The translations under genes were made by a program, and so were the position numbers. Source: Pseudothioglobus sp. nBUS_23 (GTDB lineage: Bacteria > Pseudomonadota > Gammaproteobacteria > PS1 > Pseudothioglobaceae). Taken from it: a stretch of 32,000 nt of DNA. The notes below the pieces were generated by a model that had not been told where the DNA came from, did not search any database, and worked only from the letters and a program-made list of their open reading frames with translations. Below are positions 1 to 17,703 of this stretch, piece after piece; within the stretch, counting starts at the first letter, position 1, and every line of letters begins with the position of its first letter. The DNA is taken from assembly GCF_051201565.1 (NCBI RefSeq), contig NZ_CP179200.1, positions 1,710,001 through 1,742,000 of the forward strand, given 5' to 3'.

Positions 1-68
1 AACGCTATGAATAAAATCATCGCAAGCGCTGTAGGTAAAAAGAACCAAAAAAAAGTCTTATGCTTCAT
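1..68 (-). CDS. ABC transporter permease, N-terminal fragment running off the window edge
   Basis: A minus-strand ATG at 68-66 opens a frame with no stop before position 1. It reads MKHKTFFWFFLPTALAMILFIA, a hydrophobic N-terminus typical of MalF/UgpA-type permeases. It lies 92 nt downstream of the SBP gene on the same strand. Confidence 0.45.
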   Translation of the reverse strand, partial: MKHKTFFWFFLPTALAMILFIA

Positions 69-101
69 ACAAGTTAATTATGGTTTAACACTCTATATTT
101 C

Positions 102-135
102 ATAAAAAGAAGGGGCACGCTATAAACATGCCCCT
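102..135 (-). terminator. Intrinsic-terminator-like hairpin between the SBP and permease genes (candidate intra-operon attenuator)
   Basis: The minus-strand RNA reads AGGGGCAUG-UUUAUAG-CGUGCCCCU. The arms lie at 135-127 and 119-111: 7 Watson-Crick pairs plus one G.U and one G-C. UCUUUUUAU (110-102) follows directly. Confidence 0.55.
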
Positions 136-160
136 ACTTAGGAGATCAAAACATTAAAGT

Positions 161-1390
161 TTAGAGATAACCTTTTTCTTTAGCAGCAGTTGTGTAAGCT
201 GCTTCTAAGTCAGCCAGTGCTTGACTAGCTGTTTCTTTTCCTTGCATGAAATCAACAAGCTCCTTACCTGCTGCTGAATGCATTAGACCAGCATATGGCA
301 ACATTGGATATGGAGTTGTTCCCATTGCAGCTGCAGCAAATACACCCTTGGCAGCATCTGTTGGCTGATAACCATCAATTAGCCAAACCGCTAACGGAGA
401 AGTTTCATCGTTTAGCATTTCAGGACGAATTGCATGCATCATAGCCATAAAGGTAGCTTCTGCATCTGCATCCGAAATGTTCTTAGAAACAGTGAATCCA
501 TCCCACCATAGTGTTGAAGCAGGAGTTGAGCCACCGCCTACTGTCATTGGACCTGCAATATCAGTATTATTTGCAACTGTTGGATCTACTTCATCACTCT
601 TAAGTGGTCCAACGCGAGAGCCCCACATATTCATAAGCGCAACATTACCTGCTTTCCATTCAGCACTCGTTGCATTTGAGTCGTGAGTCAAGAAGTCTGG
701 GTTCATGTAATCTGATAACGCTCTCATCATGTGAAGTGCATCTTCACCATGTTGATTGTTAACTGCAATCTCAGCAGAACCAGGCTTAAAGAACTCACCG
801 CCCTGACCAATGTACATATTGACAAATTCTTCAGCTAAGTTCCAACCAGCAGCATAAGCACCTCCGACTGGATGCTCCATCATTCCACTTGCACGTATAT
901 TCGCAGCAGCAACTAACATCTCTTCATAAGTTGTTGGCGGCGCAATACCTAACTGATCTAAGACATCTGCTCTGAAAACTAAATGCTGAGCGTTTGCCAT
1001 GAAGGCAATACCCATAATCTTTCCATCAACAGTGATTAGCTGGCTCTTCTTTAGGCCTTGACCATGCTTAGCAACTAGATCATCAAGCGGTCTAATCACA
1101 TCATTATTCATTAGTGCAACAATCGATGAGTTTGCAACAATCGCTGTTGTAAATTCAGCTGGATTACCTTGCATACCTGGCACATTAATTTTTTGGTGAT
1201 CAGCAGTTAAGTTTTTCTCAACTGTAACACCTCCACCAGCACATTCCATAGCGCCTGCACCAACAGTTTGGATCGCTGGGAACTCATTTCCAACAATGCT
1301 TACACGGCCATCGGATGCTCCACATCCTGCCCAGGCACTAGAAGCTAATGTTGTTAACGCTACAACTGTAGCAATTTTTCTTAAAAACAT
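161..1390 (-). CDS. ABC transporter periplasmic solute-binding protein, family 1 (sugar/polyol-type, CUT1-like)
   Basis: The ORF track starts at TTG 1414. ATG 1390 is the likelier start because AGGAGAG lies 5 nt upstream. This gives MFLRKIATVVALTTLASSAWAGC, a signal peptide with an AWA/G or lipobox-like AGC site. Length of about 409 aa and overall composition fit family-1 SBPs. A permease lies downstream and a MalK-like ATPase sits at the operon head. Confidence 0.85.
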   Translation of the reverse strand: MFLRKIATVVALTTLASSAWAGCGASDGRVSIVGNEFPAIQTVGAGAMECAGGGVTVEKNLTADHQKINVPGMQGNPAEFTTAIVANSSIVALMNNDVIRPLDDLVAKHGQGLKKSQLITVDGKIMGIAFMANAQHLVFRADVLDQLGIAPPTTYEEMLVAAANIRASGMMEHPVGGAYAAGWNLAEEFVNMYIGQGGEFFKPGSAEIAVNNQHGEDALHMMRALSDYMNPDFLTHDSNATSAEWKAGNVALMNMWGSRVGPLKSDEVDPTVANNTDIAGPMTVGGGSTPASTLWWDGFTVSKNISDADAEATFMAMMHAIRPEMLNDETSPLAVWLIDGYQPTDAAKGVFAAAAMGTTPYPMLPYAGLMHSAAGKELVDFMQGKETASQALADLEAAYTTAAKEKGYL

Positions 1391-1459
1391 ATTTACTCTC
1401 CTATTTATACTCAATTAAATACTCTTAGTATCACATCGAATGACCTTAAATCTTCATTT

Positions 1460-1473
1460 TGCATACGATTGCA
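1460..1473. promoter_or_regulatory. Putative LacI-family operator O1-A (TGCATACGATTGCA)
   Basis: A 14-bp pseudo-palindrome of the form TGCA-nn-CG-nn-TGCA with a central CG at 1466-1467. An identical copy lies at 11877-11890. On the minus strand it sits 4 nt downstream of an extended -10. Confidence 0.55.
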
Positions 1474-1477
1474 ATGA

Positions 1478-1486
1478 ATTATAACA
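1478..1486 (-). promoter_or_regulatory. Extended -10 promoter element (TGTTATAAT) for the SBP-permease transcript
   Basis: The minus strand reads TGTTATAAT, matching TGnTATAAT. It lies about 88 nt upstream of ATG 1390. The same arrangement recurs at 11895-11903. Confidence 0.5.
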
Positions 1487-1513
1487 CAGTCTATATTAAT
1501 ATATAAATAATTT

Positions 1514-1527
1514 TGCATTCGTATTCA
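1514..1527. promoter_or_regulatory. Putative auxiliary LacI-family operator O2-A (TGCATTCGTATTCA)
   Basis: A degenerate copy of the O1 motif with a central CG at 1520-1521. Its centre is 54 bp from the O1-A centre, the same spacing seen in the second intergenic region. Confidence 0.45.
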
Positions 1528-1595
1528 GAATATTCCTTTAGAATTTTTTTAATACTAATTAGCCTCATTATTGAACACTATTTTTCAGAATTCCA

Positions 1596-2576
1596 CTACT
1601 TTTGCCATTTTGGCAACGGGTCATAGCCGAGCTGCAACAATACATGTGGAACATCGACAAATACCCAATTTTCAACTAAGAGCTCATTTTCACGACGCCA
1701 CCAATCACAAACACGCATAAAAACTCGCTCGTTGGTTGGGCCTTGACCTAGGAATGGTTTAACGTTAACACCGGTCAATGATGGCCAGCCTCCTGAGCAG
1801 GTGTAATTGCCCTCGCCAAATCTTGTGAAGTGTTTTGTAAAGCCATTATTTTTTGTTCCACCTGACCACCCTTCAAACTGGGATTCAAACGGCACTTGAA
1901 ATGAAGCAAACTCCTCAACGCCAATAAAAGAACCGAATGCACCTGGTCCATACCACATCATATTCTTATGCCAATAAGGACGCCAGGCCTCATTCTTAGT
2001 CGCTAATTTATTGAGCATATCGGTAACAATTTGATAGCTTTGCTGCCCCTCAGCAGGGTCTAGAGAATTTATTAGGACGCCATCTCGTGACGCGGGGCCC
2101 TGAATCAGACCGGTGTATCCTCGGGAATACCCTGGACCCATATCCAAAGGCCATTGATTGCAGGCAATCATCAGTTCTGGAATATCTAGATAAATATAGC
2201 TTTCTACAGCTTGTTCATTCTCGATACGGTGGAATTCACCATAGCGCAGATAACTCAGACTTTTTGTCGATTTAATGCCGATCCAATCATTTTCGAATTG
2301 ACCAACATAATACCCGGTTGAGCTGATCCAATTTTGTCCCTCAAATTCTCCTGCCATGAAGATATCATCACGCCTATAGAGTCCTTCGAATGAATGTTGG
2401 AGCGGCAGGAGAAATTCATTAAGGTATATTTCTGCACCTTTGAGCTGATTAAACGGATGGACAACATTAATGTCAGCATCCTCACCAAAAAAAATCGCAA
2501 TGTTGGAAGAGAAGTCTCCCGGATGGCTCAATGCCGCTGCATATTTCAAATAGAATGAACGGTCATATATCGACAT
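1596..2576 (-). CDS. Tandem NTF2/SnoaL-like domain protein, function unknown
   Basis: ATG start with AGGAAAA 5 nt upstream. The C-terminal segment RVCDWWRRENELLVENWVFVDVPHVLLQLGYDP matches the SnoaL ester-cyclase C-terminal signature also seen in the 161-aa protein ([16 protein letters not shown]). The N-terminal half ends in an analogous ESYIYLDIPELMIACNQWP, which suggests two NTF2-like domains. Confidence 0.55.
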   Translation of the reverse strand: MSIYDRSFYLKYAAALSHPGDFSSNIAIFFGEDADINVVHPFNQLKGAEIYLNEFLLPLQHSFEGLYRRDDIFMAGEFEGQNWISSTGYYVGQFENDWIGIKSTKSLSYLRYGEFHRIENEQAVESYIYLDIPELMIACNQWPLDMGPGYSRGYTGLIQGPASRDGVLINSLDPAEGQQSYQIVTDMLNKLATKNEAWRPYWHKNMMWYGPGAFGSFIGVEEFASFQVPFESQFEGWSGGTKNNGFTKHFTRFGEGNYTCSGGWPSLTGVNVKPFLGQGPTNERVFMRVCDWWRRENELLVENWVFVDVPHVLLQLGYDPLPKWQK

Positions 2577-2634
2577 AATTTTTCCTATTAAAATAAATAA
2601 ACTTTATGGTAACTCAATGATCTATAGAATAAAA

Positions 2635-3342
2635 CTAGGTACGGGATTTTTCAAAATCTTCCCATGCTCTTTTAAAATCATCAAAACTAAATTCTGTTTT
2701 TTCTGCAGGGTCTAATATGAGCCTTTCAGAAGCAAACAGCTTATGAATTGAATCTTTCAAAATAGGTATTACTTCATTCGGAACTAGAACTGCTCCATGA
2801 CGATCTGCATGGATTAAGTTGCCTGGATTCACCGTCATTCCAAAGACATTTACAGGGGTATCTATCTCGCGGACATGCACAAAACCATGGCTAGGGCCTA
2901 TTGAACCAGCGACTACCGGAAAGCCTTCTGCAAGATCACCTAAATCTCTCATTACTCCATTGGTTAGAGCTCCTGAAAGTCCAAACCCCTTGTGTACTTT
3001 AGTATTAATTTCTCCCCAATAAGCTCCGATACAGTCTGGAAAATCAAGATCCTCAATAACTACAACTGTTGGTCCATTTATTTCAGACATATAGCGATAG
3101 TAATTCATTCTTCGCTCTTTAATAATTTCTGGGTTTTCTTTCGGTGGTTCTATTGCTGCAATCTTTGCAGTTTTAGCAAAACCAACCATAGCTCCACCGT
3201 CTGCATCAGAACAAAGCATCGTTCCTCTAGTAAATTGGGAAAAGCCCCGTTTGCCTTGAGCAACCTCAATCGCATTACAGACAGTTGGTGTATCGACCGA
3301 CTGAAGCAGTTTTAGTAAATCTGAATCTATCTCATCAGCCAT
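2635..3342 (-). CDS. RraA-like protein (4-hydroxy-4-methyl-2-oxoglutarate aldolase / oxaloacetate decarboxylase family)
   Basis: It carries a family-like pattern: TPTVCNAIE near the N-terminus, GALTNGVMRD, and GNLIHADRHGAVLVP near the C-terminus. GGAGG lies about 10 nt upstream of the ATG. The start overlaps the 3' end of the upstream hydrolase gene by 16 nt. Confidence 0.7.
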   Translation of the reverse strand: MADEIDSDLLKLLQSVDTPTVCNAIEVAQGKRGFSQFTRGTMLCSDADGGAMVGFAKTAKIAAIEPPKENPEIIKERRMNYYRYMSEINGPTVVVIEDLDFPDCIGAYWGEINTKVHKGFGLSGALTNGVMRDLGDLAEGFPVVAGSIGPSHGFVHVREIDTPVNVFGMTVNPGNLIHADRHGAVLVPNEVIPILKDSIHKLFASERLILDPAEKTEFSFDDFKRAWEDFEKSRT

Positions 3343-4019
3343 TCTTTTATTACCTCCGTTGTTTCTCTGGGTTGCTCCAATGTAGGCATATGGCCCGCAT
3401 TATTTATTATTTTTAAATCTGAATCAGTAATCATATTATGCATCATCTCATGCCTTTCCACAGGACATAATTTATCCTCCGAGCCACACAGAATCAATAC
3501 AGGGATTTTAATTGATTGAATAGTATCCTGTTGATCTAACCTTGATTGAAGGGCTCTTGATTGATTAATAAAAACATCTGGCCCTAGGGTCAACGCCATA
3601 TCCATACAAACATTTAGAACGCTCCTTTTGTTTTCACTTTCGGCAAGATAATTTGGTTTCATTTCATCTCGCATCACTTCGAGAAGCTTGCCCTGATTAA
3701 CCTCTCTTATCTGGGGTTCTCGCTTTAATTTAACTTCGTCTAGTTCAGCCTTAGGATTTGTATCCATAAGTATGAGTTTCTCAATCCGATTAGGTGCTTG
3801 AGAATATATTTCCATAGCAACAATGCCGCCCATTGAATGCCCTAAGAGTGAAAAATTTTTTGGAGCCTTTTTTAACACATCTGAGGCCAACTCCCTGACT
3901 GATGAAAAATTCGAAATATCTGCAATAGTTACTTCAAGGTTCTGACTCAGTGCTTCTATTTGTGGGGAAAAGATTCTTTCATCACACATCATTCCCGGAA
4001 CCATAACTAGACTTTTCAC
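3327..4019 (-). CDS. Alpha/beta-fold hydrolase
   Basis: It has the nucleophile elbow GHSMGG and later GSEDKLCP and NAGHMPTLEQP, which fit a Ser-Asp-His triad. The GTG start at 4019 lies 1 nt after the upstream TAG (translational coupling). An alternative ATG lies 5 codons in. Confidence 0.8.
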   Translation of the reverse strand: MKSLVMVPGMMCDERIFSPQIEALSQNLEVTIADISNFSSVRELASDVLKKAPKNFSLLGHSMGGIVAMEIYSQAPNRIEKLILMDTNPKAELDEVKLKREPQIREVNQGKLLEVMRDEMKPNYLAESENKRSVLNVCMDMALTLGPDVFINQSRALQSRLDQQDTIQSIKIPVLILCGSEDKLCPVERHEMMHNMITDSDLKIINNAGHMPTLEQPRETTEVIKEWLMR

Positions 4020-4021
4020 AA

Positions 4022-5149
4022 CTAATTACTTGCAATTAAAGCGCCCTCAGATAGTGACTTCAGCTTAGCAAATGCAATATCAGGATCTACAGCTCCAAAT
4101 CCTGCAAAGGTTCCAAAGCCACAGTCAGAGCCCGCTATAACTCTTTCCTTGCCGACAATGTTGACAAATTTATTGATCCTCTCAGCGACTAGCTCTGGGT
4201 GTTCAATAAAGTTAGTTGTCGTATCAACAACTCCAGGAACCAGTATTTTGTCATCTGGTATCTCTTTCTTTCGATCACGAAAGACTGTCCATTCATGAGC
4301 ATGTCTTGGATTTGAGGTCTCGAATAATGTGTATTGAGCATCCGCTTTCATTAAAGTTCCAAACACCTTATTCATGTCAATATCACAGACATGTGGGCCC
4401 TCATAGTTTCCCCAGCAAATATGAATTCTTACTTTTTCAGATGGGACATTTTTTAGAGCATGATTTAAAGCCTCCATATGCGACTCTGCGATCTTTATGA
4501 ACTCCGAATCCGATAGATCACTAAATAGCATATGTCTCGAAAGAGCCAGGTCCGGACAATCAAGTTGCAAGTCTAATCCTGAAGCGACAATCGTTTCATA
4601 TTCTTCTCTCATAGCATCTGCAAGTGCTGCAAGGTAGGCATCTCTAGTTGCATAAAAATCATTCTGCAGAAATAAAGAAATGACACCCGGTGAGGCTGCA
4701 TTCATAAAACCCCTCTCAACTCCATGAGCTTTCATTGCATTTTTTAAATTGGCGATATCTTTTTGAAGCTCTCCCTGACCCTTGGATTTTACTTCTCCAG
4801 TGCACATTGGCCTAGCATATTGTGGCGTACCTCCCTCATCTGCAAGTCTTTGAAGAAATCCTGGAAAAAGCTTTAAATCTTCTGGTGCATTTCTTGGGCT
4901 ATCTCCCGAAAAACCGGTATATCTATCTTTGACATAAGTAGCATATGAAATTTTGGAGGTTTCGCCATCACTAACAATGTCAATTCCAGAGTTTTTTTGT
5001 TTTTCAACTGTACTCAAAACGTTTCTTTGCATACATTCATCAAAGCTATTTTGATCATATTTTTTATTATTTTCTCTAGCGAAAATAAAGTCGACCACCC
5101 CCTGACTTCTTGGCAGTGAGCCGACATGACTGGTTAAAATTTTATTCAA
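4022..5149 (-). CDS. Core-MetE-like protein (cobalamin-independent methionine synthase C-terminal / URO-D-CIMS-like Zn fold)
   Basis: The N-terminus TSHVGSLPRS is typical of the Meth_synt_2 family. Putative Zn ligands are the His-x-Cys in RIHICWGNY, the Glu in LFETSNP and the Cys in AGSDCGFG. The TTG start is supported by AAGGAG 6 nt upstream. At 375 aa this is the single-barrel core form. Confidence 0.7.
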   Translation of the reverse strand: MNKILTSHVGSLPRSQGVVDFIFARENNKKYDQNSFDECMQRNVLSTVEKQKNSGIDIVSDGETSKISYATYVKDRYTGFSGDSPRNAPEDLKLFPGFLQRLADEGGTPQYARPMCTGEVKSKGQGELQKDIANLKNAMKAHGVERGFMNAASPGVISLFLQNDFYATRDAYLAALADAMREEYETIVASGLDLQLDCPDLALSRHMLFSDLSDSEFIKIAESHMEALNHALKNVPSEKVRIHICWGNYEGPHVCDIDMNKVFGTLMKADAQYTLFETSNPRHAHEWTVFRDRKKEIPDDKILVPGVVDTTTNFIEHPELVAERINKFVNIVGKERVIAGSDCGFGTFAGFGAVDPDIAFAKLKSLSEGALIASN

Positions 5150-5171
5150 ATCAATCTCCTTAAAATAAATA

Positions 5172-6137
5172 CTACATTCTCCATGTTGGCCCTGCTATAT
5201 CATTAGTCTTAGTCACCCGAAAAAGACTGGCATCATTTGAGTTTAATGGAACCATTCTATAAGTTAGGTTTGGCGTTATGAGGCATGTGTCCCCCTCTGA
5301 CAATTCTGAACTACCACCTTCATACTCTAAAGACCAGCTACCCTTTGAAATCATATTAACTTGATACTGGTCTGGAAAATCAAACTCATCAATAAACGAA
5401 TTATTTGTAATAAAGTCAACTTCAAAACCGGGTCTATCTTTTAATATTCCGTTTTTACCTATGACATTGACTGAGCCTTTTTTTGAGCTTTCAAAGAGAT
5501 CTGCTGCACTAACAAAAAAATTTTCTTGAAATTCTTCGGTTGTAACGATAGGAAAATCTTTTAGCTCGTCTTCACTTAAAAGAGGCATTGGATTAACATG
5601 GCTTGGTAGCGACTCTCCTTTTTTAGTGTCATAAAGCAACCCATTTTCACCCAATATCAAACCATATTCTTTGGCATTATTGATGACTTCTGGAGCCCAT
5701 GTCACTCCGCCTCCCGCATCATCACCTCCGAGAACTGCCATTAACATTCCATAGGAATTACCAATATTTTTAAATGCTCTAAAAACACCAGTAGGTATAT
5801 TAACCAAGTCTCCTTCATTCGCAATCACTTCACCATCTTTTCCATCACGGCCCCAAAAGAAACGCCACCTTCCTTTAAGGACATAAAAAACTTCTGCTGT
5901 AGTGTGAGAGTGTAATGAATTAGTACAGCCTGGTGGCTGACCAGCTGCACCAATATTAAAGCCAGGAGTCTCCTTAATATGAACATGTTGATCAGGGCTT
6001 TCAGAAACCCCAGAACCAATAATTGTAAAATTTTCTTTTTGATTTGAGCCAGGCGTATGGGCATCAATAAATGCCGTCTTACATGGCTTTAAATCAGCAT
6101 ATCTCACAATAAATTTTTCCATCTCTTTCGAGGTCAT
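5172..6137 (-). CDS. Bicupin protein (one metal-site cupin plus one degenerate cupin)
   Basis: The N-terminal domain carries cupin motif 1, GCTNSLHSHTTAEVFYVLKG (HxHxxxE), and motif 2-like GDLVNIPTGVFRAFKN. The C-terminal half (GSWSLEYEGGSSELSEGDTCLITP) has cupin-like spacing but no His ligands. Confidence 0.7.
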   Translation of the reverse strand: MTSKEMEKFIVRYADLKPCKTAFIDAHTPGSNQKENFTIIGSGVSESPDQHVHIKETPGFNIGAAGQPPGCTNSLHSHTTAEVFYVLKGRWRFFWGRDGKDGEVIANEGDLVNIPTGVFRAFKNIGNSYGMLMAVLGGDDAGGGVTWAPEVINNAKEYGLILGENGLLYDTKKGESLPSHVNPMPLLSEDELKDFPIVTTEEFQENFFVSAADLFESSKKGSVNVIGKNGILKDRPGFEVDFITNNSFIDEFDFPDQYQVNMISKGSWSLEYEGGSSELSEGDTCLITPNLTYRMVPLNSNDASLFRVTKTNDIAGPTWRM

Positions 6138-6140
6138 AAA

Positions 6141-7109
6141 TTAGCCTGTTTTGATTATTATTTGCTTCCATAAAGCTGTTTCATCGAACAGAGTGTATTC
6201 CCTTCTTAATCCCCACGGTCCAAACTCTGCATGGGTAACTCCCATAACATATAAATCAGCCCCTGTAGGTTCACCAAAAACCCCCCATCCATCATGCTTA
6301 CCTTTGAGATTCCATCGAACCGCGGCTCTTGGAGAAAGCTGTTCATCTTCGCGTCCGATTTGATGCTCTACTGTAAATTTTGCACTTGGCATTGAGGAGC
6401 GAAGACCCATCCAAAACTCTTCTGCATGATTATATGAATGACCACTGACGCCTCCTGGATATTCAAGATGACAGCCCCGGTCATATTGAGACCTAAAGAC
6501 TGAGGAATCTGAATTCATAATACGCTCCAATATGTCAACGAATCTCTCTCCCCATTCATTTTGGTTACCTTTTCCAGTGTATGGTCCAGCCAAATCCATC
6601 GAATCATTGAATGGATGCTGGCATTGCTGAACACCCCCCTCCTGATCTATCTGATTTCTAGCAAAATCCTGCGGAGTCATGCCTAGCTGTCTAACAATAG
6701 CTCCTTGGTCTCTTATTAGCCACTCATCATTTACCTGGTTGTTGATTGCATGACAATCTGCAATGGTCCTGAATACAACTTTTTTACCAGTTGCATTTCC
6801 AAATGAGCCATCTCCGAGATGGGAGGCTGTTGAAATAATTCGATGAGAAGACAACATCCCTTTCTCTGGACTGCCTGACCAAATTACATCTTCTCCTAAA
6901 AGCTTACGATCAGGAAACTCAAATAATGTTGCCTTGGTGGCATCGATAACTGTGTTATTGCCAATCACCAGAGAGGGTGGCGCTCTTAAAATAATATCAT
7001 CTGAATATAGATACAGAAGTTTATCAATACCTCTCTCTTCCCAAATTTCATGAGTTATGCCATTAATCCAATCTGGAAAATTTGCATACTTTGAATCGAA
7101 CCCTTCCAT
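6141..7109 (-). CDS. Tandem NTF2/SnoaL-like domain protein, function unknown
   Basis: ATG start with AGGAGA 7 nt upstream. The first domain ends DEWLIRDQGAIVRQLGMTP, a SnoaL-type signature. The second half (VRWNLKGKHDGWGVFGEPTG...REYTLFDETALWKQI) looks like a second NTF2-like fold. Confidence 0.6.
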   Translation of the reverse strand: MEGFDSKYANFPDWINGITHEIWEERGIDKLLYLYSDDIILRAPPSLVIGNNTVIDATKATLFEFPDRKLLGEDVIWSGSPEKGMLSSHRIISTASHLGDGSFGNATGKKVVFRTIADCHAINNQVNDEWLIRDQGAIVRQLGMTPQDFARNQIDQEGGVQQCQHPFNDSMDLAGPYTGKGNQNEWGERFVDILERIMNSDSSVFRSQYDRGCHLEYPGGVSGHSYNHAEEFWMGLRSSMPSAKFTVEHQIGREDEQLSPRAAVRWNLKGKHDGWGVFGEPTGADLYVMGVTHAEFGPWGLRREYTLFDETALWKQIIIKTG

Positions 7110-7119
7110 TAATTATCTC

Positions 7120-8132
7120 CTATTTTTCAGACATTCTTGCAGACCCTCTGACCATGAGTGGGCCATCAATTTCAATTCTTCTTGCGGTTGTAGTCTTGTT
7201 CTCAATACTTTCAATTAATATTGAAACGGTTTCTGCTACCATTCGATTTGCAGGTTGACGAACAGTTGTTAGGTCGTAGGCTGGCCATGATGAAATGGGG
7301 ACATCATCATATCCAACAACAGAGACCTGCTCGGGGACTTTTAGTCCAAGCTCAAACCTAATTACATCTATCACTGCAATGGCCATTGCATCATTAGCAA
7401 TGAAAACTGCATCTGGATAATCTTTTTTGGTAAACATTTTTCTTGCAGCTTGTCTAGCTTCATCTGTATTAAAGTTGCCAACTTCGCGAGCATAGAGCTC
7501 TTGTCCATTTCTGGCTAGCTCATTTACGAATCCTTTTTCTCGATCTCGTTGCGTAGAAGCTCCTTCCCAACCCGCAATATATCCAATTTTCTTATGGCCC
7601 CCAGCCATAAGAAATCGTGCAACTTTCTGACCACCAAGCTCATTATCAGATGTGACTGCAGAGAACCTTTCATCATCTTGAGATCTATTAAATAGGACAA
7701 CAGGGACTCCAGCTGATCCACATCTTTTTGCCAAGTCAGAGGACATAGAAACAGATGCAGCAATAATTCCATCAACTTGATAGTCTAATATTTCATCAAC
7801 TGCATCCTCAATATCATCCTCAGTATTTCCAGCCATAAATATAAGAACGTGATATCCTTTCTTTTGAAGAGCACTGGATAGAAGCTCTAATGCCTCTGGA
7901 TAAAAATAATTATCAAGATAGGCCACAACAAGCCCAATAATTCTTGACTTTCCTGTTATCAATGAACGAGCAAGAACATTTGGCCTATAGCCAAGCTTTG
8001 CTGCCGCCTTACGAACTAATTCGTCTGTTTTTTTAGAAGATGACGCTCCAGGGTAAACACGCGAGAAACAGCAGACTGGCTAACACCGGCTAATTTAGCG
8101 ACCTCCAATGATGTAACTTTTTTATTTTCCAT
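7120..8132 (-). pseudogene. LacI-family transcriptional regulator, disrupted by a 1-nt frameshift between the HTH and effector domains
   Basis: ATG 8132-8130 overlaps the SDR stop as TAATG. It encodes MENKKVTSLEVAKLAGVSQSAVSRV, a LacI-type HTH, then reads on out of frame and terminates at TAG 8018-8016. A second frame, closed upstream by TAG 8082-8080, reads RVYPGASSSKKTDELVRKAAAKLGYRPNVLARSLITGKSRIIGLVV. That frame runs straight into the 280-aa effector-domain ORF (7120-7962). Confidence 0.75.
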
Positions 8133-8899
8133 TAGTCTGCAGTCCATCCTCCGTCTATCATCAAAGCAGAGCCAGTGATCATGCTAGATGCATCTGACGC
8201 AAGAAAGACCACTGCTCCCATCACATCCTCAACCTCTCCAACTCGACCTAGTTTAATCTTGTCTTCTATCCATTTTTTGCGATCCGGATTGTCAAATGTA
8301 GACTGTGTTAAGGGCGTTCGAATAAATGTTGGACAAATGGTATTCACTCTAATTTGATGCCTCCCCCACTCAATAGCCATTGCCTTTGTAAACCCCTCGA
8401 CAGCATGTTTTGAGGCCGCGTATACTGCTCGATCAACCCCGCCAACATGGCCCATTTGAGAAGATATATTAATCAACGATCCAGGCTTTTTTGCTTTAAT
8501 TAAAGCTTTTGCAATAGACTGTGTAAGGAAGTATGCTCCCTTAAGATTTACATCCATTACCGCCTCAAAATCTTCGGCGGATGTTTCTAACGAGGGAGTA
8601 TGTCGACCCAAGCCAGCACTATTAACCAAAACATCAAAAGGCTTTTGTTCTTTTAAAACAGTATCAATTGAGACTAAATCTGAGATATCAATCTGTAAAG
8701 TCTCTGCACTGAATCCTTTCATGATAATTGCCTCAGCTGCTTCACTTAAAGCTTTAATATTTCTTGAGGCTAAGACAACATCAGCTCCGGCCTCAGCCAG
8801 AGCAACTGCACATCCTAAGCCAATTCCTGATGAAGCGCCAGTTACTAACGCCCTAAGGCCATCCAGTCTTAATGAAGGCGTCTTAGGTAAATCAATCAT
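8132..8899 (-). CDS. Classical short-chain dehydrogenase/reductase (FabG-like)
   Basis: It has TGASSGIGLG (TGxxxGxG), NSAG and the catalytic YAASK (YxxxK). AAGGAG lies 9 nt upstream of the ATG. Confidence 0.9.
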   Translation of the reverse strand: MIDLPKTPSLRLDGLRALVTGASSGIGLGCAVALAEAGADVVLASRNIKALSEAAEAIIMKGFSAETLQIDISDLVSIDTVLKEQKPFDVLVNSAGLGRHTPSLETSAEDFEAVMDVNLKGAYFLTQSIAKALIKAKKPGSLINISSQMGHVGGVDRAVYAASKHAVEGFTKAMAIEWGRHQIRVNTICPTFIRTPLTQSTFDNPDRKKWIEDKIKLGRVGEVEDVMGAVVFLASDASSMITGSALMIDGGWTAD

Positions 8900-8953
8900 T
8901 TATTGCGCTCCTTGCTAACTACAAGGGCTTTATTGGTTGAGTGCAAACTAGAC

Positions 8954-10264
8954 TTATTGAGCAGCTTTACCATAGGGCACATCTTCACCACCATAACGCC
9001 TAACTCTTATGTTGGCCTGCTCTGCATGACCCACAAAAGACTCAAGCATACAGAGTCTTGAGCAGTATCTGCCAATCTTGACAGCTGCTTCATCCGTTGT
9101 AATTTTTTGGTAGCTATGTGTTTTAAGATACTTACCAACCCATAGACCGCCAGTGTAGCGCCCCGCTTTTTTTGTAGGAAGCGTATGGTTAGTTCCAATC
9201 ACCTTATCACCATTTGATACGTTAGTTCTTGGTCCTAAAAATAATGCACCATAAGAGTGCATATTTTCCAGGAACCAGTCATCTCGATCAGTCATTACTT
9301 GAACATGCTCAGAGGCAATCTCATTGGCAACCTCAAGCATTTCATCGTAGGTGTCACAAACAACAACCTCACCATACTCCTCCCAACTAACGCCAGCAGT
9401 ATCGGCTGTAGGAAGAATGGTGAGTATTCTATCAATTTCATTAAGAGTCTCATCTGCAAGATTTTGACTATTGGTTACAAGGACCGCTGGCGAGTTATAG
9501 CCATGCTCAGCCTGACCAAGAAGATCAGTTGCGCACAATTCAGCATCTACTGTCTCATCTGCAATCACCATAGTCTCTGTTGGACCAGCAAAAAGATCAA
9601 TTCCAACTCGTCCGAAGAGTTGTCTTTTAGCTTCAGCCACATATGCATTACCTGGACCGACCAGCATATCGACTGGGGCAATCGTTTCAGTGCCTAAGGC
9701 CATAGCACCAACAGCTTGAATGCCACCAATGACATAAATCTCATGAGCTCCACCAAGATGCATTGCAGCAATGACCGCTGCATTAGGCTGACCTTGATAG
9801 GGCGGAGTGCAAGCTACAATTCTAGGAACCTTTGCAACACTAGCTGTAACTACTGACATGTGTGCAGAGGCAACCATTGGGAACTTCCCTGCTGGCACAT
9901 AACAGCCTACTGACTGAACAGGAATATTTTTGTGTCCAAGAATAACTCCTGGCATTGTTTCAACTTCAATATCTTGCATCGAGTCTCTTTGAGCTTGTGC
10001 AAAGTTCCTCACTTGTTCTTGAGCAAACTTAATGTCTTTCATGTCTCTATCAGACACATTTGAAATAAGATTATCAATCTCAGCTGAGCTTAGTTTGTAT
10101 GATTTTGGTGAATAATTATCAAACTTTTCTGAGAACTCTCTAACAGCAGCATCACCTTTTTCTTCAATGACTTTTAAAGTATTTTTGACTACCTCACTTA
10201 CCTGAGCATCGTCGATTGCTTTATCTTCAGCAGTTTTTCCTTTTTTTAAATAATATATTGCCAT
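8954..10264 (-). CDS. Histidinol-dehydrogenase-family NAD-dependent alcohol-to-acid dehydrogenase (HisD paralog in a catabolic context)
   Basis: HisD signature residues are kept: GQAEHG (Zn Gln/His), ASEHVQV (catalytic Glu-His) and GTNHTLPT. Length is 436 aa. No other his genes are nearby. Confidence 0.8.
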
Positions 10265-10275
10265 AGTAATTCCAA

Positions 10276-10761
10276 TTAATTAGGTTTGGGTGGTTCGGCC
10301 TCACCCCGATCAAAAGCCTCCCAACCCTGGCCATTAAAAACATCAACTCCAAGTTGGGCAAGAATACTTGGGAAATCTACATTGACCCAATTATCAACAA
10401 TGAGGCCATCTCTAACTTCCCAAAAATCTGTGTAATGAATTTTCACGCGCTTATTTGTAGGTTTAATGCCCATGAATTCTCCACTATGAACAGCATCGAT
10501 GTGCCCAAAACAAGAAGCCCATTCACCATCCACAAGAAACTTGTCTGTTTTATAGATTCTATCTGTAAAAGCTGCTCTTAAAGGGAGCTGCCAGTTGTTT
10601 CGAAACTCTTCAAGATTATTTTTTGTTCCACATCCTTGATTGCCCATCCATCGAAAATCTTTATGAAAATGCTTATCCATACTATTTGAATTAGCCCCTA
10701 AAGCCTCTTCCATTGCCTTGATTACTGCAAGGGTTTTTTGGGATTTTTCATCATAACTCAT
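10276..10761 (-). CDS. SnoaL-like ester cyclase / NTF2-fold protein (single domain)
   Basis: 161 aa. The C-terminal [26 protein letters not shown] is the typical SnoaL-family signature. Confidence 0.75.
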
Positions 10762-10774
10762 AATATCTCTCTAA

Positions 10775-11827
10775 CTAGCTGTCTAGCATTTGTCCAGTTT
10801 CACTATCAAACAATAAGCATAAATTTGCAGAAATATTAGCCATAACCTTTGAACCTATATCAACGTGATAGTTTTTGTCAGACTTAATTGAAATCAATTC
10901 TCCTCCAGATTTGATGGATACCATTGTCATATCTCCAAGAAGCTCCATTGAAAATGCTGGAGCAGAAATAGCACCTTTTGACTTAACAATAACTGCATCC
11001 TCTGCTCTAAAACCAAGAGTCACATTGCCCTTGTGTTTTTTACTCAAACCATCAATCTTTACGCCTTCACACGTGAAAACACCATCCTTAATTGAGCCTT
11101 TCAATAGATTCATAGCTGGCGACCCAATAAAGCTTGCAACGAAACTATTGGCGGGTTTGTTGTATATTTCTTGAGGTGTTCCAACTTGCTGAACGATTCC
11201 AGCATTCATTACAACAACTCTGTCTGCCAAAGTCATTGCCTCTACCTGATCATGTGTCACATAAATAGTGGTAACTTTTAAACTGTGCTGTAAATTTTTT
11301 ATTTGTGCACGAGTAGAAACACGTAATTTAGCATCGAGATTTGATAATGGCTCATCCATCAAAAAAACTGTTGGCTCTCTTACAATTGCTCTTGCTAGTG
11401 CAACTCTTTGCCTTTGCCCTCCAGAGAGTTCTGCTGGTTTTCTGTGAAGAAAATCATTCAGTTCAACCATTTCAGAGGCCCTCATCACTTTCTCATCATG
11501 GAGAGATTTATCAATTTTTCTAACCTTTAAAGGAAAACGAATATTTTCATAAACTGTCATGTTGGGGTATAACGCATAAGATTGAAATACCATGGCAACA
11601 TCTCGGTCTTTTGGTTCAAGAGAGTTAACCACTTTTCCATCAATTAAAACCTCACCACTTGTAACATTCTCAAGGCCAGCAATCATTCTCATTGTCGTTG
11701 TCTTGCCACAACCTGAAGGCCCTAACAAAACTAAAAACTCTTCGTCAGGTATAGTAAGGTTAAAGTTATCTACACCGACAAAATTACCCCATCGTTTTGT
11801 AAGATTTTTTAATTCAATTTCTGCCAT
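10775..11827 (-). CDS. ABC transporter ATP-binding protein, MalK/UgpC/MsmK type
   Basis: It has Walker A GPSGCGKTT, the signature LSGGQRQRVALARA, Walker B FLMDEPLSNLD, an H-loop in TTIYVTHD, and a C-terminal MalK-like regulatory/TOBE region. Confidence 0.95.
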   Translation of the reverse strand: MAEIELKNLTKRWGNFVGVDNFNLTIPDEEFLVLLGPSGCGKTTTMRMIAGLENVTSGEVLIDGKVVNSLEPKDRDVAMVFQSYALYPNMTVYENIRFPLKVRKIDKSLHDEKVMRASEMVELNDFLHRKPAELSGGQRQRVALARAIVREPTVFLMDEPLSNLDAKLRVSTRAQIKNLQHSLKVTTIYVTHDQVEAMTLADRVVVMNAGIVQQVGTPQEIYNKPANSFVASFIGSPAMNLLKGSIKDGVFTCEGVKIDGLSKKHKGNVTLGFRAEDAVIVKSKGAISAPAFSMELLGDMTMVSIKSGGELISIKSDKNYHVDIGSKVMANISANLCLLFDSETGQMLDS

Positions 11828-11876: not shown

Positions 11877-11890
11877 TGCATACGATTGCA
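11877..11890. promoter_or_regulatory. Putative LacI-family operator O1-B (TGCATACGATTGCA)
   Basis: An exact copy of the 1460-1473 motif; the identity extends to 15 nt. On the minus strand it sits 4 nt downstream of an extended -10. It lies in the divergent gap between the ABC ATPase and BKACE genes. Confidence 0.55.
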
Positions 11891-11894
11891 AAAT

Positions 11895-11903
11895 ATTATA
11901 GCA
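11895..11903 (-). promoter_or_regulatory. Extended -10 promoter element (TGCTATAAT) for the ATPase-led operon
   Basis: The minus strand reads TGCTATAAT, about 68 nt upstream of ATG 11827. Its register relative to the operator is the same as at 1478-1486. Confidence 0.5.
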
Positions 11904-11930
11904 CAAGGTTTTTTCTTTTAAAGGTAATGT

Positions 11931-11944
11931 TGCAATCCTATGCA
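11931..11944. promoter_or_regulatory. Putative auxiliary LacI-family operator O2-B (TGCAATCCTATGCA)
   Basis: It has one mismatch to the reverse complement of O1 (central CC instead of CG). Its centre is 54 bp from the O1-B centre and 79 nt upstream of the BKACE ATG. Confidence 0.45.
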
Positions 11945-11973: not shown

Positions 11974-12000
11974 ATTTGAATTTTGAAATAAAATTCAAAT
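11974..12000. promoter_or_regulatory. Perfect 11-bp inverted repeat (ATTTGAATTTT-GAAAT-AAAATTCAAAT) upstream of the BKACE gene
   Basis: The arms at 11974-11984 and 11990-12000 are exact reverse complements with a 5-nt spacer. The repeat ends 22 nt before ATG 12023, just upstream of the AAGGGGAG ribosome-binding site. Confidence 0.4.
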
Positions 12001-15947: not shown

Positions 15948-16124
15948 AAGCACTCCAAAAAAAACTAATTCGAAAAATGTTAGATTTGATCTAAGTCAAT
16001 GTTAATTCAAATAAAAAATTATCTCAAGTTAATAAATTTAATAGTTTTTATTGATTTTTTTTATATAAGTTTAAAAAATAAACAATATAATCAAATGTCA
16101 ATATAAAAAATAAGGGGTCAATAA

Positions 16125-17115: not shown

Positions 17116-17700
17116 TCACTTTAGAAGCAGGCTACCAATACCTCTTTTTACTTCTTCTTTTGTTGCACTAGAATCTAACGCCTTTCCAATCCTGACATTG
17201 ACATCTCGACGGAAACTAAACTTCATGCTTCTTTTGACTAATCTTGGTGCTTTGGAGAAAAAACTACCCCACATATTGTTAATCGCGAAAGGAACAACTT
17301 TGACTCCCTCCTTGGACTGGGATAAAACTTTTTCAAAGCCTCTTTTTAAATCACTCAACTCTCCTGAAGTTGAGACATGGCCTTCTGGAAACAAGCCAAC
17401 AACACAATCATCTTCTAATAGGTTAACAATATTTTGCATCGCATTTCTACTATTCTCAGGCCTTATAGAGACTGCACCAACAGCTCTTAAAATCGTATTG
17501 AAAATAGGCTTTCTGTAATAATCATCGTGGACAACAAATCTTATTGTTCTTGGAGTTGCCCACTGAATAAAGGCAAAGTCTATATAGCTAATATGATTTC
17601 CTAGAAGTAAAACAGGGCCGCTCTTTGGAATATTTTCAATTCCATGAACTTTTAGTCGATAACGCCATCCGAATAAAAGGAGACCTGCAAGTTGGCGCAT
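17116..17700 (-). CDS. PlsC-family (lyso)phospholipid acyltransferase
   Basis: It has the HX4D motif in NHISYIDF and block III FPEGHVS. The start lies 3 nt after the stop of the upstream LplT-like gene. Confidence 0.8.
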   Translation of the reverse strand: MRQLAGLLLFGWRYRLKVHGIENIPKSGPVLLLGNHISYIDFAFIQWATPRTIRFVVHDDYYRKPIFNTILRAVGAVSIRPENSRNAMQNIVNLLEDDCVVGLFPEGHVSTSGELSDLKRGFEKVLSQSKEGVKVVPFAINNMWGSFFSKAPRLVKRSMKFSFRRDVNVRIGKALDSSATKEEVKRGIGSLLLK

Positions 17701-17703
17701 ATA

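Follow-up and report, generated by a model that had tools for sequence, protein, structure and literature searches.

The 32,000-nucleotide stretch of the Pseudothioglobus sp. nBUS_23 genome analysed here (contig NZ_CP179200.1, positions 1,710,001 to 1,742,000; the window) holds a long minus-strand gene cluster, part of a repressor-controlled set of about 16 (15-17) genes for the import and breakdown of a small polar compound. The set consists of two transcription units, one running from a MalK-like ATPase gene to the gene of a tandem NTF2 protein (NTF2-A), the other from the gene of a substrate-binding protein (SBP) through permease genes and a glucose-methanol-choline (GMC) oxidoreductase gene to a further NTF2 gene. 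Gene set, gene order and operator are conserved between Gammaproteobacteria (Thioglobus) and Alphaproteobacteria, and we hold it very probable that the cluster is a substrate-inducible catabolic LacI regulon. Its architecture is familiar, with repressor control, a linked importer and enzymes of known superfamilies; the pathway, three enzyme families and the substrate are new.

A listing of open reading frames (ORFs) places twelve complete minus-strand genes between 161 and 11827 (Table 1), all of them where an earlier first-pass annotation, made from the sequence alone, had put them. From the MalK-like gene downstream they are separated by 13, 11, 54, -1, 10, 3, 22, 2, -16, 58 and 181 nt, and 92 nt lie between the SBP gene and the permease gene; barring the two longer gaps (181 and 92 nt), spacing ranges from -16 to 58 nt. 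Gene families were assigned with Pfam and NCBIfam (June 2026), and AlphaFold models with Foldseek comparison were used for NTF2-A and the bicupin only. The family calls of the first-pass annotation agree with the Pfam and NCBIfam assignments, with structural backing, at the level of fold rather than function, for those two proteins. Its permease does begin in the window, with only the first 22 codons inside, and their translation, MKHKTFFWFFLPTALAMILFIA, equals the permease start on the matching metagenome contig L001. The operon layout proposed earlier also holds, except that the operon continues beyond the window start: on contig L001 and in Thioglobus single-cell genomes (including L005), two permease genes, a GMC oxidoreductase gene and another, “fourth” tandem-NTF2 gene lie 3′ of the SBP gene. 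The Thioglobus GMC oxidoreductase is BetA-like, with 559 bits against a cutoff of 605. Depending on the genome, the fourth tandem-NTF2 gene is followed by an MttB-family gene or by dimethylglycine-dehydrogenase-like, DddP-like and AcuI-like genes. The hairpin 3′ of the SBP gene, ahead of the permease gene, could act as a partial terminator or an mRNA stabiliser, which would raise SBP relative to permease.

Table 1. Features of the gene cluster, in window coordinates, from the first promoter to the window start.
Feature	Position	Strand	Remarks
Promoter 1 region, putative LacI boxes 11877-11890 and 11931-11944	11877-11944	-	Exact TGCAATCGTATGCA and a 1-mismatch copy
MalK/UgpC-type ABC importer ATPase	10775-11827	-	First gene of transcription unit 1; Pfam/NCBIfam
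Single-domain SnoaL-like NTF2 protein (Sn1)	10276-10761	-	Pfam SnoaL
HisD/HpsN-family Zn/NAD four-electron alcohol dehydrogenase, motif G-K-F-P-M	8954-10264	-	Predicted
SDR oxidoreductase, gluconate-5-dehydrogenase/KduD type	8132-8899	-	
LacI-family repressor, frameshifted	7120-8132	-	LacI domains (Pfam, NCBIfam)
Tandem NTF2/SnoaL protein B	6141-7109	-	Pfam SnoaL and SnoaL_2
Bicupin, one metal site in N-terminal barrel	5172-6137	-	Pfam Cupin_2
Core-MetE-like zinc protein, predicted homocysteine S-methyltransferase	4022-5149	-	Pfam Meth_synt_2
Alpha/beta hydrolase, predicted esterase or lactonase	3327-4019	-	
RraA-like protein, predicted class II aldolase or decarboxylase	2635-3342	-	Pfam RraA-like
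Tandem NTF2/SnoaL protein A	1596-2576	-	Last gene of transcription unit 1
Promoter 2 region (internal, before SBP gene), putative LacI boxes 1460-1473 and 1514-1527	1460-1527	-	Exact and a 2-mismatch copy
Periplasmic substrate-binding protein (SBP) of ABC importer	161-1414	-	Probable start ATG 1390
GC-rich stem-loop then T-run, between SBP and permease genes	111-135	-	11-bp stem, 6 G-C pairs
ABC permease 1, first 22 codons	3-68 (window 68-3)	-	Operon runs on past window start

Control by the LacI-family protein is suggested by the two large intergenic regions. Each of them contains a single copy of the exact 14-mer TGCAATCGTATGCA, which is imperfectly palindromic in the manner classic for the LacI family, and each time a degenerate second box lies exactly 54 bp upstream of the exact one. 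The window holds five box matches where 0.29 would be expected by chance; four are at the two promoter regions, and the fifth, at 19101 inside trpB, was taken as chance. Both regions have a sigma-70-like promoter with an extended -10 between the box pair (TTTAAA-16-TATAAT at 11922-11895 and TTTATA-18-TATAAT at 1507-1478), so that the strong box would cover the transcription start and the weak box would lie just upstream of the -35 element. Since boxes and promoter-like sites are present at both places, the cluster divides into two LacI-controlled transcription units, and the 181-bp break at 1415-1595, already read as an internal promoter region in the first-pass annotation, keeps that reading. 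The box layout of promoter 1 recurs in the Thioglobus loci L005-L011 and in Ruegeria loci; the same 54-bp paired boxes lie between a divergent NTF2 gene and malK in three Ruegeria species, and Pseudahrensia carries the perfect palindrome TGCATACGTATGCA twice. The operon thereby joins a LacI-family repressor gene to palindromic TGnnnnCGnnnnCA-type putative operators at its promoters.

The repressor gene itself is broken in this sequence. Alignment with loci L005 and L008 confirms the frameshift that had been reported and traces it to a 1-nt deletion, a T missing between window positions 8053 and 8052; the gene is intact in both relatives (342 and 337 aa, the former in L005). The helix-turn-helix is encoded from the start ATG at 8132-8130 in a frame that stops at 8018-8016, and the ligand-binding domain lies in the ORF 7120-7962. 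The frameshift is either a genuine pseudogene or a sequencing error; if it is genuine, the operon may be constitutive in this strain.

To place the cluster among other genomes, a species-level genome scan with NTF2-A gave 162 related loci, followed by tblastn with all window proteins and ORF clustering. The closest NTF2-A loci (85-96% identity) are from Candidatus Thioglobus, ARCTIC96BD-19 single-cell genomes and metagenome-assembled genomes (MAGs). At least six Thioglobus-type genomes carry the whole set in unchanged order, and the cluster recurs with a slightly different module order in about 20 alphaproteobacterial genomes, among them the Rhodobacteraceae Ruegeria conchae, R. faecimaris, R. 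lacuscaerulensis, Aliiroseovarius, Marivita and Primorskyibacter, a Hyphomicrobiales genome, a Devosiaceae MAG and Pseudahrensia. Protein identity between the classes is 50-82%, with the HisD-like and MetE-like proteins at about 80%. According to the first-pass annotation, absence of this gene order from related genomes would mark a fortuitous juxtaposition of unrelated genes. Accessory modules (GMC, HisD-like with its short-chain dehydrogenase/reductase (SDR), and hydrolase with RraA-like) do come and go among genomes; however, the recurrent order in two classes at this identity, the common operator architecture and the tight packing leave chance assembly a negligible probability.

The variants show how the cluster is built from modules. 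Its smallest forms consist of the importer, NTF2-A and NTF2-B (Marivita), or of these and the MetE-like gene. The common core adds the Sn1-type single SnoaL protein, another tandem NTF2 protein, the bicupin and the MetE-like protein, and the add-on modules are HisD-like with SDR, hydrolase with RraA-like, GMC, and a lactonase (Amidohydrolase_2 or SMP-30). These lactonase genes, the Amidohydrolase_2 type being fuconolactonase-like, adjoin the divergent NTF2 gene in alphaproteobacterial clusters; we considered the Amidohydrolase_2 neighbour as LigI/LigJ and rejected this, since NCBIfam places it nearest to L-fuconolactonase. Roseibium has split the cluster into a unit of NTF2, ABC and LacI genes and a separate unit of tripartite ATP-independent periplasmic (TRAP) transporter, HisD-like, SDR, LacI, bicupin, hydrolase and RraA-like genes, and this lower module’s own transporter suggests an anionic intermediate. 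Sinorhizobium/Ensifer carries ABC, HisD-like, SDR, LacI, bicupin, RraA-like, amidase and hydrolase genes and one tandem SnoaL gene, without the MetE-like gene. Some alphaproteobacterial loci have extra genes for S-adenosylmethionine (SAM)-dependent methyltransferases or PNPOx-like (FMN-binding) proteins between the conserved genes (L061 12981-13955 and 18123-18938; L073 18232-18840; L083 15329-15964).

Identities of 75-82% and the same operator layout across two classes indicate that the cluster has clearly moved horizontally as a unit, to judge by these sequences. The first-pass annotation saw no sign of recent mobility. For the window this stands, with no tRNA, integrase or GC anomaly in it; it does not extend to several other genera, in which the cluster is on a plasmid or megaplasmid (Marinovum pMaD9, Ruegeria, Octadecabacter, Roseibium, Sinorhizobium). 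In the searched collection the genes are very frequent: two of the member proteins have over 7000 homologues each, the majority of them from the ENA, JGI and Tara metagenome sources, and 415 contigs carry one exact variant. Among the carriers are bacteria of the surface ocean, isolates from algae, corals, clams, ascidians and sea ice, and soil rhizobia with the added amidase.

We found no characterised pathway that matches the cluster in NCBIfam (June 2026), PDB sequence searches, open-access papers or bioRxiv. In NCBIfam, five proteins (bicupin, MetE-like, RraA-like, hydrolase and SDR) had only sub-threshold matches; the PDB, searched by sequence, yielded nothing for the bicupin (E>0.01) or NTF2-A and remote relatives for NTF2-B, RraA-like and MetE-like. 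This agrees with the earlier statement that the enzyme set matches no recognised pathway: among characterised proteins only HpsN (~50% identity) is a close relative, and the motif that defines its substrate reads differently in the cluster. Apiose and branched-sugar, KduI/KduD uronate, methionine salvage (acireductone dioxygenase, ARD), opine/Amadori and nucleoside/methyl-purine pathways were rejected because their defining enzymes are absent here. The hom operon for homarine (PMC13236597) encodes a pair of flavoproteins together with a peptidase-like enzyme and an aldehyde dehydrogenase. It resembles the cluster in being conserved and linked to a regulator, and it serves Rhodobacterales and other bacterioplankton in the use of a methylated compound that stems from phytoplankton; it has no enzyme family in common with the cluster and was rejected as a match.

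The importer is of the CUT1 type, as the first-pass annotation had proposed in describing a coherent LacI-controlled operon. Its ATPase has the MalK/UgpC-type domains including the C-terminal OB domain (Pfam ABC_tran and OB_MalK) and passes the UgpC-subfamily model NF008653 with 449.6 bits against a cutoff of 432; identity is 67-74% to the copies in alphaproteobacterial clusters for which a full-identity match was obtained and 83-97% in Thioglobus genomes. The SBP, which probably starts as called on contig L001 and would then have 409 aa, has no Pfam match at E<0.01, and its orthologues match SBP_bac_1/8. Its best PDB relative is SmoF, the sulfoquinovosyl-glycerol binding protein (E 1e-6), followed by sugar SBPs.

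The HisD-like dehydrogenase scores 371 bits against HpsN (PDB 8v35) and 250 bits against HisD. HpsN and HisD differ in a discriminating loop, which reads G-R-Y-A/S-H in HpsN, where the final His126 binds the sulfonate, and G-S-A-P-L in HisD (PMC11382572). The loop is G-K-F-P-M in all 25 aligned orthologues, those of Sinorhizobium, Roseibium and Marinovum among them. The protein thus has neither the sulfonate-binding motif of HpsN nor the loop of HisD, and its context is catabolic rather than a his operon, while it passes the domain-level model TIGR00069 (430 bits against 243.8). The zinc ligands Gln248, His251, Asp352 and His411 and the catalytic Glu318/His319 are conserved in every orthologue with a residue at the position (23-25 of 25), and Lys353 of HpsN is kept. 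Together, the changed loop and the retained zinc, catalytic and Lys353 residues point to an active enzyme of a third HisD/HpsN subfamily. By analogy with HpsN it probably oxidises a CH2OH group beside a zinc-bound hydroxyl or amino group, with an anionic group nearby that would be something other than a sulfonate recognised in the HpsN manner. The SDR gene travels with the HisD-like gene in related loci; its product scores 221 bits against KduD in NCBIfam (cutoff 339), and in the PDB it comes closest to gluconate 5-dehydrogenase, 2-deoxy-D-gluconate 3-dehydrogenase and L-xylulose reductase.

These two proteins raise the question of a sulfonate pathway, for 2,3-dihydroxypropane-1-sulfonate (DHPS), cysteinolate or sulfoquinovosyl-glycerol, in which the HisD-like enzyme would be HpsN and the SDR an HpsO-like racemising partner. 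Known DHPS catabolism (HpsN, HpsO/HpsP and TRAP import) does resemble the cluster in the HpsN identity, closer than that to any HisD, in the zinc ligands, catalytic Glu/His and Lys353, in the pairing of SDR and HisD-like genes and in the TRAP transporter of the Roseibium lower module, which is of the kind that imports DHPS in Roseobacters. A TauE-type exporter beside one cluster and the SmoF match of the SBP fit as well, but the latter, at 31 bits, is a weak match that hardly outscores a chitin-oligosaccharide binder. The cluster departs from DHPS catabolism in the invariant GKFPM loop in place of GRYA/SH and in that HisD-like is an accessory module of a larger cluster, whose core (NTF2-A, NTF2-B, bicupin, MetE-like) occurs without it. 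Annotation and Pfam, with no dedicated sequence search made against the loci, revealed no desulfonation gene (suyAB, xsc, cuyA, slcD), SMO-type monooxygenase or sulfoquinovosidase in the clusters examined. Given this result, a pathway for DHPS or sulfoquinovose is unlikely, and we rate sulfonates as a whole improbable.

Several proteins of the cluster have the NTF2/SnoaL fold. The fold is assigned through Pfam for Sn1 (SnoaL, 56.5 bits against a cutoff of 28.4) and NTF2-B (SnoaL at residues 19-142 with 43.6 bits against the same cutoff, SnoaL_2 at 196-296), and through model superposition for NTF2-A, which stays below the Pfam SnoaL cutoff (22 bits). The AlphaFold model of NTF2-A has two NTF2 cones, 1-138 and 174-315, and Foldseek returned AclR, IdmH, SnoaL2, LEH and PhzA/B at no more than 17% identity, with probability 1.0 for AclR, IdmH and SnoaL2. 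Sn1 has IdmH, AclR and SnoaL as best PDB relatives at E 1e-7 or weaker. Sn1 is present in 22 cluster loci and NTF2-B in 24. No NCBIfam model matches NTF2-A or NTF2-B; the 729 homologues of NTF2-A are, where listed, unnamed or generically named, and the tandem family is small, with 773 representatives at E<=1e-3 among 1.84 billion, nearly all of about 330-345 aa. To our knowledge, no member of this tandem family has been characterised.

The cluster proteins share the cone-shaped, cofactor-free fold with the aldol cyclases SnoaL/AknH, AclR/SnoaL2, limonene epoxide hydrolase (LEH), PhzA/B, scytalone dehydratase and the lignin diarylpropane lyase LdpA, and Lsd19, another NTF2-fold relative, has two domains, as do A and B with two such domains per chain. 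Known members of this fold perform acid-base chemistry on ketones, enols, imines and epoxides, a range illustrated by scytalone dehydratase, KSI, LEH, PhzA/B and LdpA. The cluster proteins differ from these enzymes in their low identity and in the presence of four or five paralogues in one catabolic operon. A solo NTF2-A clade, 77-85% identical to the window protein and without conserved neighbours, occurs in many Roseobacters and in Granulosicoccus (loci within L014-L050, e.g. L022 in Algirhabdus, L026 in Pacificoceanicola, L017/L019 in Granulosicoccus and L040 in Cognatishimia). The window NTF2-A groups with this clade, and in-cluster alphaproteobacterial copies are only 59-71% identical. 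An OpuAC-type transporter gene beside the Cognatishimia solo copy gave a betaine hint that we dropped, as no neighbour is conserved across 28 solo loci.

Annotations such as “ester cyclase” and “SnoaL-like polyketide cyclase”, together with the SAM-dependent methyltransferase genes of a few loci, would suit a biosynthetic cluster in which SnoaL-type cyclases make a secondary metabolite. The clusters have no polyketide synthase (PKS), nonribosomal peptide synthetase, ligase or exporter, and for aldol cyclisation of the PKS-cluster kind we found no PKS genes and a catabolic, importer-linked context. Built round a binding-protein-dependent importer and a LacI protein with putative operators at both promoters, equipped with aldolase, hydrolase and dehydrogenase types typical of breakdown, and present in streamlined oligotrophs such as Thioglobus, the cluster is very improbable as a biosynthetic one.

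The MetE-like protein (375 aa) aligns to the C-terminal half of Escherichia coli MetE (residues 381-753, the only part supplied for comparison) and has two H-x-C motifs. Equivalents of Ser433, Glu484, Asp599, His641, Cys643, Glu665 and Cys726 are kept in 17 of 17 MetE-like orthologues; in E. coli MetE we take His641, Cys643, Glu665 and Cys726 to be the zinc ligands and Ser433, Glu484 and Asp599 to hold homocysteine. The zinc site (His/Cys/Glu/Cys) and homocysteine residues (Ser/Glu/Asp) are thereby shared with MetE and core-MetE synthases, with betaine-homocysteine methyltransferase as a functional parallel. The window protein differs from MetE in standing in a catabolic operon, in falling under every cutoff of the NCBIfam methionine-synthase models (best 92 bits against 406), and in being without the N-terminal (beta-alpha)8 half, which binds folate and completes the methyl-tetrahydrofolate-polyglutamate site. 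Because all zinc and homocysteine residues are kept, the methyl group probably goes to homocysteine, and we lean towards such a transfer with modest confidence. On the simplest reading of these residues, the protein would be a homocysteine S-methyltransferase that takes the methyl group from the pathway substrate or an intermediate and forms methionine. It has more than 8000 homologues; the best 120, at 96-99% identity, are mostly from ENA, JGI and Tara metagenome sources, and the top list of this large-database search held near-identical marine sequences only, with no distant named relatives.

Two sphingomonads carry a more distant, 48%-identical MetE-like homologue beside ligM, metF, purU and ligAB; its gene is in translational coupling with that of a small NTF2 protein, after which comes an IclR gene. 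This unit of MetE-like, 130-aa NTF2 and IclR genes lies in the lignin-aromatic region of Novosphingobium pentaromativorans pLA3 (L090 9004-11296) and Sphingobium sp. RAC03 (L091 8995-11285), and we found no description of its function. The same region holds an alpha/beta hydrolase that is 31% identical, over its full length, to the window hydrolase and, in Novosphingobium, lies next to ligM. The occurrence of MetE-like, NTF2 and hydrolase homologues within a region for O-demethylation and ring cleavage ties this trio to methoxy-group metabolism.

For the remaining enzymes, assignments are broader. The bicupin (AlphaFold model, pLDDT 79) has the motif H76-x-H78-x3-E82, in which H76, H78 and E82 are invariant; an invariant Arg120 occupies the motif-2 His position and the C-terminal barrel has no conserved metal ligands. 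Foldseek places oxalate decarboxylase, quercetinase, 3-hydroxyanthranilate dioxygenase and salicylate/gentisate dioxygenases about equally close (TM ~0.5). Quercetin 2,3-dioxygenase, gentisate/salicylate 1,2-dioxygenase, mammalian 3-hydroxyanthranilate dioxygenase and oxalate decarboxylase likewise have two barrels with an N-terminal HxHxxxE motif; they differ from the cluster bicupin in its Arg in place of the fourth His and its metal-free second barrel. Arg120 would suit an anionic substrate, and dioxygenase, decarboxylase or isomerase activity would all be compatible. Dke1, a single-cupin enzyme, and acireductone dioxygenase, cupins that cleave beta-diketones and enediols, are mechanistic parallels. 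The hydrolase is nearest in NCBIfam to the PcaD/PcaDC 3-oxoadipate enol-lactonases (94-96 bits, below cutoff); hydrolase and RraA-like genes are neighbours in Roseibium as well as in the marine clusters, and both are present but apart in Sinorhizobium. The RraA-like protein has the fold by Pfam PF03737 (61.5 bits against 24.5), matches PDB 3noj at E 5e-3 and fails the LigK/PcmE equivalog model TIGR02798 for 4-carboxy-4-hydroxy-2-oxoadipate (CHA) aldolase (34.6 bits against 304.5). It appears to be a distant relative of the 4-hydroxy-4-methyl-2-oxoglutarate (HMG)/CHA aldolases, RraA-fold enzymes that act on 4-hydroxy-4-carboxy-2-oxo acids, and we predict a class II aldolase or a decarboxylase.

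Taken as a whole, the cluster resembles in its logic the protocatechuate 4,5-cleavage and gallate/syringate pathway (LigM/DesA, CHMOD, LigI/LigJ, LigK): demethylation, ring opening, ester or lactone hydrolysis and an aldol split by an RraA-fold enzyme. The sphingomonad lignin pathway also resembles it through the MetE-like and hydrolase homologues beside its genes. There are also differences: the cluster has no LigAB-type dioxygenase or GcvT-type demethylase, similarity to LigK is far below the equivalog cutoff, and it has sugar-type import, LacI control and five NTF2 proteins.

The explanation that we favour, whose overall standing blends those of its parts and which we hold with evenly divided confidence, is a catabolic route for a substrate that is probably small and polar, with a transferable methyl group and a hydroxymethyl-substituted carbinol. 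The first-pass suggestion of a methylated or ring-containing substrate gains from the complete set of MetE-like residues and from the RraA-like, hydrolase and bicupin set, which resembles the lower pathways of ring cleavage; it is still something that we infer. The compound would be imported by the CUT1 ABC system, and the cofactor-free NTF2/SnoaL enzymes would then carry out non-redox steps on an enol, beta-diketone or imine-type centre, such as hydrolysis of C-N substituents, dehydration or isomerisation. The MetE-like zinc enzyme would move the methyl group to homocysteine to give methionine; in clusters without it, the alpha/beta hydrolase would free methanol from a methyl ester. The bicupin, with its His2-Glu site and invariant Arg, would cleave a C-C bond of an enediol or beta-diketone with O2, and hydrolases or lactonases would open the resulting ester or lactone. 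The HpsN-like dehydrogenase would oxidise a CH2OH beside a zinc-bound hydroxyl to the carboxylate, its conserved Lys pointing to a nearby anionic group, and the RraA-like aldolase would finally split a 4-hydroxy-4-carboxy-2-oxo acid into pyruvate and oxaloacetate-type products. The order of these steps is tentative, and we put it at less than an even chance.

One compound class was found that uses every part, and for this reason we favour mycosporine-like amino acids, mycosporines or (4-deoxy)gadusol as the substrate class, although the assignment is unlikely when taken by itself. Mycosporines and gadusol are polar, C7-sugar-derived 2-methoxy cyclic beta-diketones or enaminones with a tertiary carbinol that bears a CH2OH group, and the amino-acid substituents of mycosporines sit on C=N/C-N bonds. 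Such compounds are abundant in algae, cyanobacteria, corals and fungi, where they act as UV sunscreens and osmolytes. The tandem NTF2 enzymes would strip the amino-acid substituents off the ring, and this hydrolysis would account for the minimal clusters of importer, A and B. Demethylation and enediol cleavage would lead to 4-hydroxy-4-hydroxymethyl-2-oxoadipate, or Dke1-type cleavage of the methoxy-diketone to its methyl ester. Oxidation of the CH2OH group would give 4-carboxy-4-hydroxy-2-oxoadipate, the textbook substrate of RraA-fold aldolases, which the RraA-like enzyme would split into pyruvate and oxaloacetate. The distribution of carriers is compatible with this class and is no proof of it.

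Several observations weigh against this explanation. With the exception of the HpsN relative, no enzyme is near a characterised one, and every catalytic step is derived from superfamily membership. The link to mycosporines stays doubtful. The MetE-like protein could be a mere methionine synthase that recycles methyl-folate made elsewhere, and the bicupin, which lacks the usual fourth His ligand, may isomerise or decarboxylate its substrate instead of acting as a dioxygenase. The minimal clusters have no redox enzyme at all and the step order is uncertain, a few clusters include SAM-methyltransferase and PNPOx-like genes that lie outside the scheme, and closely related solo NTF2-A genes without conserved neighbours exist in many Roseobacters. 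Finally, neighbouring genes (MttB, carnitine, DddP-like, DmdA, corrinoid protein) point to onium osmolytes.

These neighbours lead to the other substrate that we weighed, an alcohol-bearing onium (quaternary ammonium or sulfonium) osmolyte or a deacylated betaine-lipid head group; a choline- or dimethylsulfoniopropionate (DMSP)-related compound, glyceryl-linked trimethylhomoserine and carboxy-hydroxymethyl-choline would be candidates. The MetE-like protein would then act like betaine-homocysteine methyltransferase, GMC and HisD-like enzymes would oxidise the alcohol or glyceryl group, and the NTF2 proteins would cleave an ether or acetal. Onium methyls are, as general chemical knowledge has it, the easiest donors for a zinc thiolate, and the ATPase passing the UgpC cutoff, the relation of the SBP to SmoF, which binds a glyceryl conjugate, the action of HpsN on a 1-substituted propane-2,3-diol and the BetA-like GMC oxidoreductase are in line with such a substrate. 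Thioglobus neighbours include two MttB-family genes, carnitine genes for a BKACE enzyme and a dehydrogenase, a dimethylglycine-dehydrogenase-like gene, a DddP-like gene (461 bits) and GbdR-type AraC regulators; the Marinovum cluster abuts mtoX, dmdA and dmdB, and a corrinoid protein gene is upstream in two Aliiroseovarius-type loci. However, none of these neighbours is conserved across lineages, and the importer is of the CUT1 sugar type rather than OpuA or BCCT, the lone OpuAC neighbour of a solo NTF2-A gene not being conserved. It is not obvious what the bicupin, the RraA-like aldolase and five NTF2 proteins would do in the breakdown of a betaine, and the Sinorhizobium and Roseibium variants are without the MetE-like gene. 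The quaternary-amine osmolyte suggested in the first-pass annotation is thus possible and draws on non-conserved neighbours only; we judge an onium substrate to be unlikely, on a par with the mycosporine class.

The same annotation had the operon co-regulated with the adjacent carnitine genes, which we find unsupported. The carnitine genes are divergently transcribed and have their own perfect inverted repeat, and BKACE adjoins the cluster in no more than a single sublineage of Thioglobus (L005, L007, L008), the other genomes of that group having AraC regulators at this position; alphaproteobacteria have nothing comparable. The repeat, 11 nt in each arm (ATTTGAATTTT-N5-AAAATTCAAAT, 11974-12000), lies just upstream of the BKACE and carnitine-dehydrogenase genes, is distinct from the LacI boxes and is probably the operator at which a different regulator acts on the carnitine genes.

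If the favoured explanation is true, the cluster would be the first known bacterial pathway that consumes mycosporine-like amino acids, mycosporines or (4-deoxy)gadusol, would give tandem NTF2 proteins a new catalytic role, and would lead from an algal methyl ether to methionine with neither folate nor B12. Its carriers are among the most abundant surface-ocean heterotrophs (Thioglobus/ARCTIC96BD-19 gammaproteobacteria and Roseobacters). A conserved import-and-degrade system of 15-17 genes implies that current models leave out a considerable flux of dissolved organic carbon and methyl groups, and possibly of nitrogen. The cluster also flags three uncharacterised families, namely the tandem NTF2 proteins, the third HisD/HpsN subfamily (GKFPM) and a catabolic core-MetE, and several carriers are cultivable (Ruegeria conchae, Marinovum algicola, Roseibium aggregatum, Sinorhizobium medicae).

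The surroundings of the cluster differ among genomes. Two different non-pyrrolysine MttB-family genes flank it in Thioglobus (window 14412-15953, minus strand, and L005 17107-18633), with 270 and 317 bits to the trimethylamine methyltransferase model (cutoff 525). One of them is convergent with the carnitine dehydrogenase gene, and no corrinoid-protein gene was seen beside the MttB-family genes in the window. Directly downstream of the cluster, the Thioglobus single-cell genomes L009 (15578-20452) and L011 carry genes for a dimethylglycine-dehydrogenase-like protein (804 aa), the DddP-like M24 protein (461 bits against a cutoff of 600) and an AcuI-like reductase, and GbdR-type AraC regulators lie upstream; this is an osmolyte-catabolism island whose content varies among Thioglobus lineages. 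Two Aliiroseovarius-type loci (L065 430-1786 and L058) have genes for a B12-binding corrinoid protein and a 229-269 aa protein without Pfam match upstream of the cluster, beside a second LacI gene. On the 98-kb plasmid pMaD9 of Marinovum algicola (L088 16281-22923), the full cluster is followed by genes with the annotations selenium-binding-protein-56 homologue, alcohol dehydrogenase, dmdA, acyl-CoA synthetase and, for two of them, “DMSP breakdown”.

The remainder of the window holds the carnitine genes, the MttB-family methyltransferase gene, trpFB, topA, yidC and the ATP synthase operon. At 17116-19002, two separate adjacent genes encode a lysophospholipid transporter, LplT (432 aa), and an acyltransferase (194 aa). 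Both match the model of the long fused acyl-ACP-phospholipid O-acyltransferase, which means a split system in this genome.

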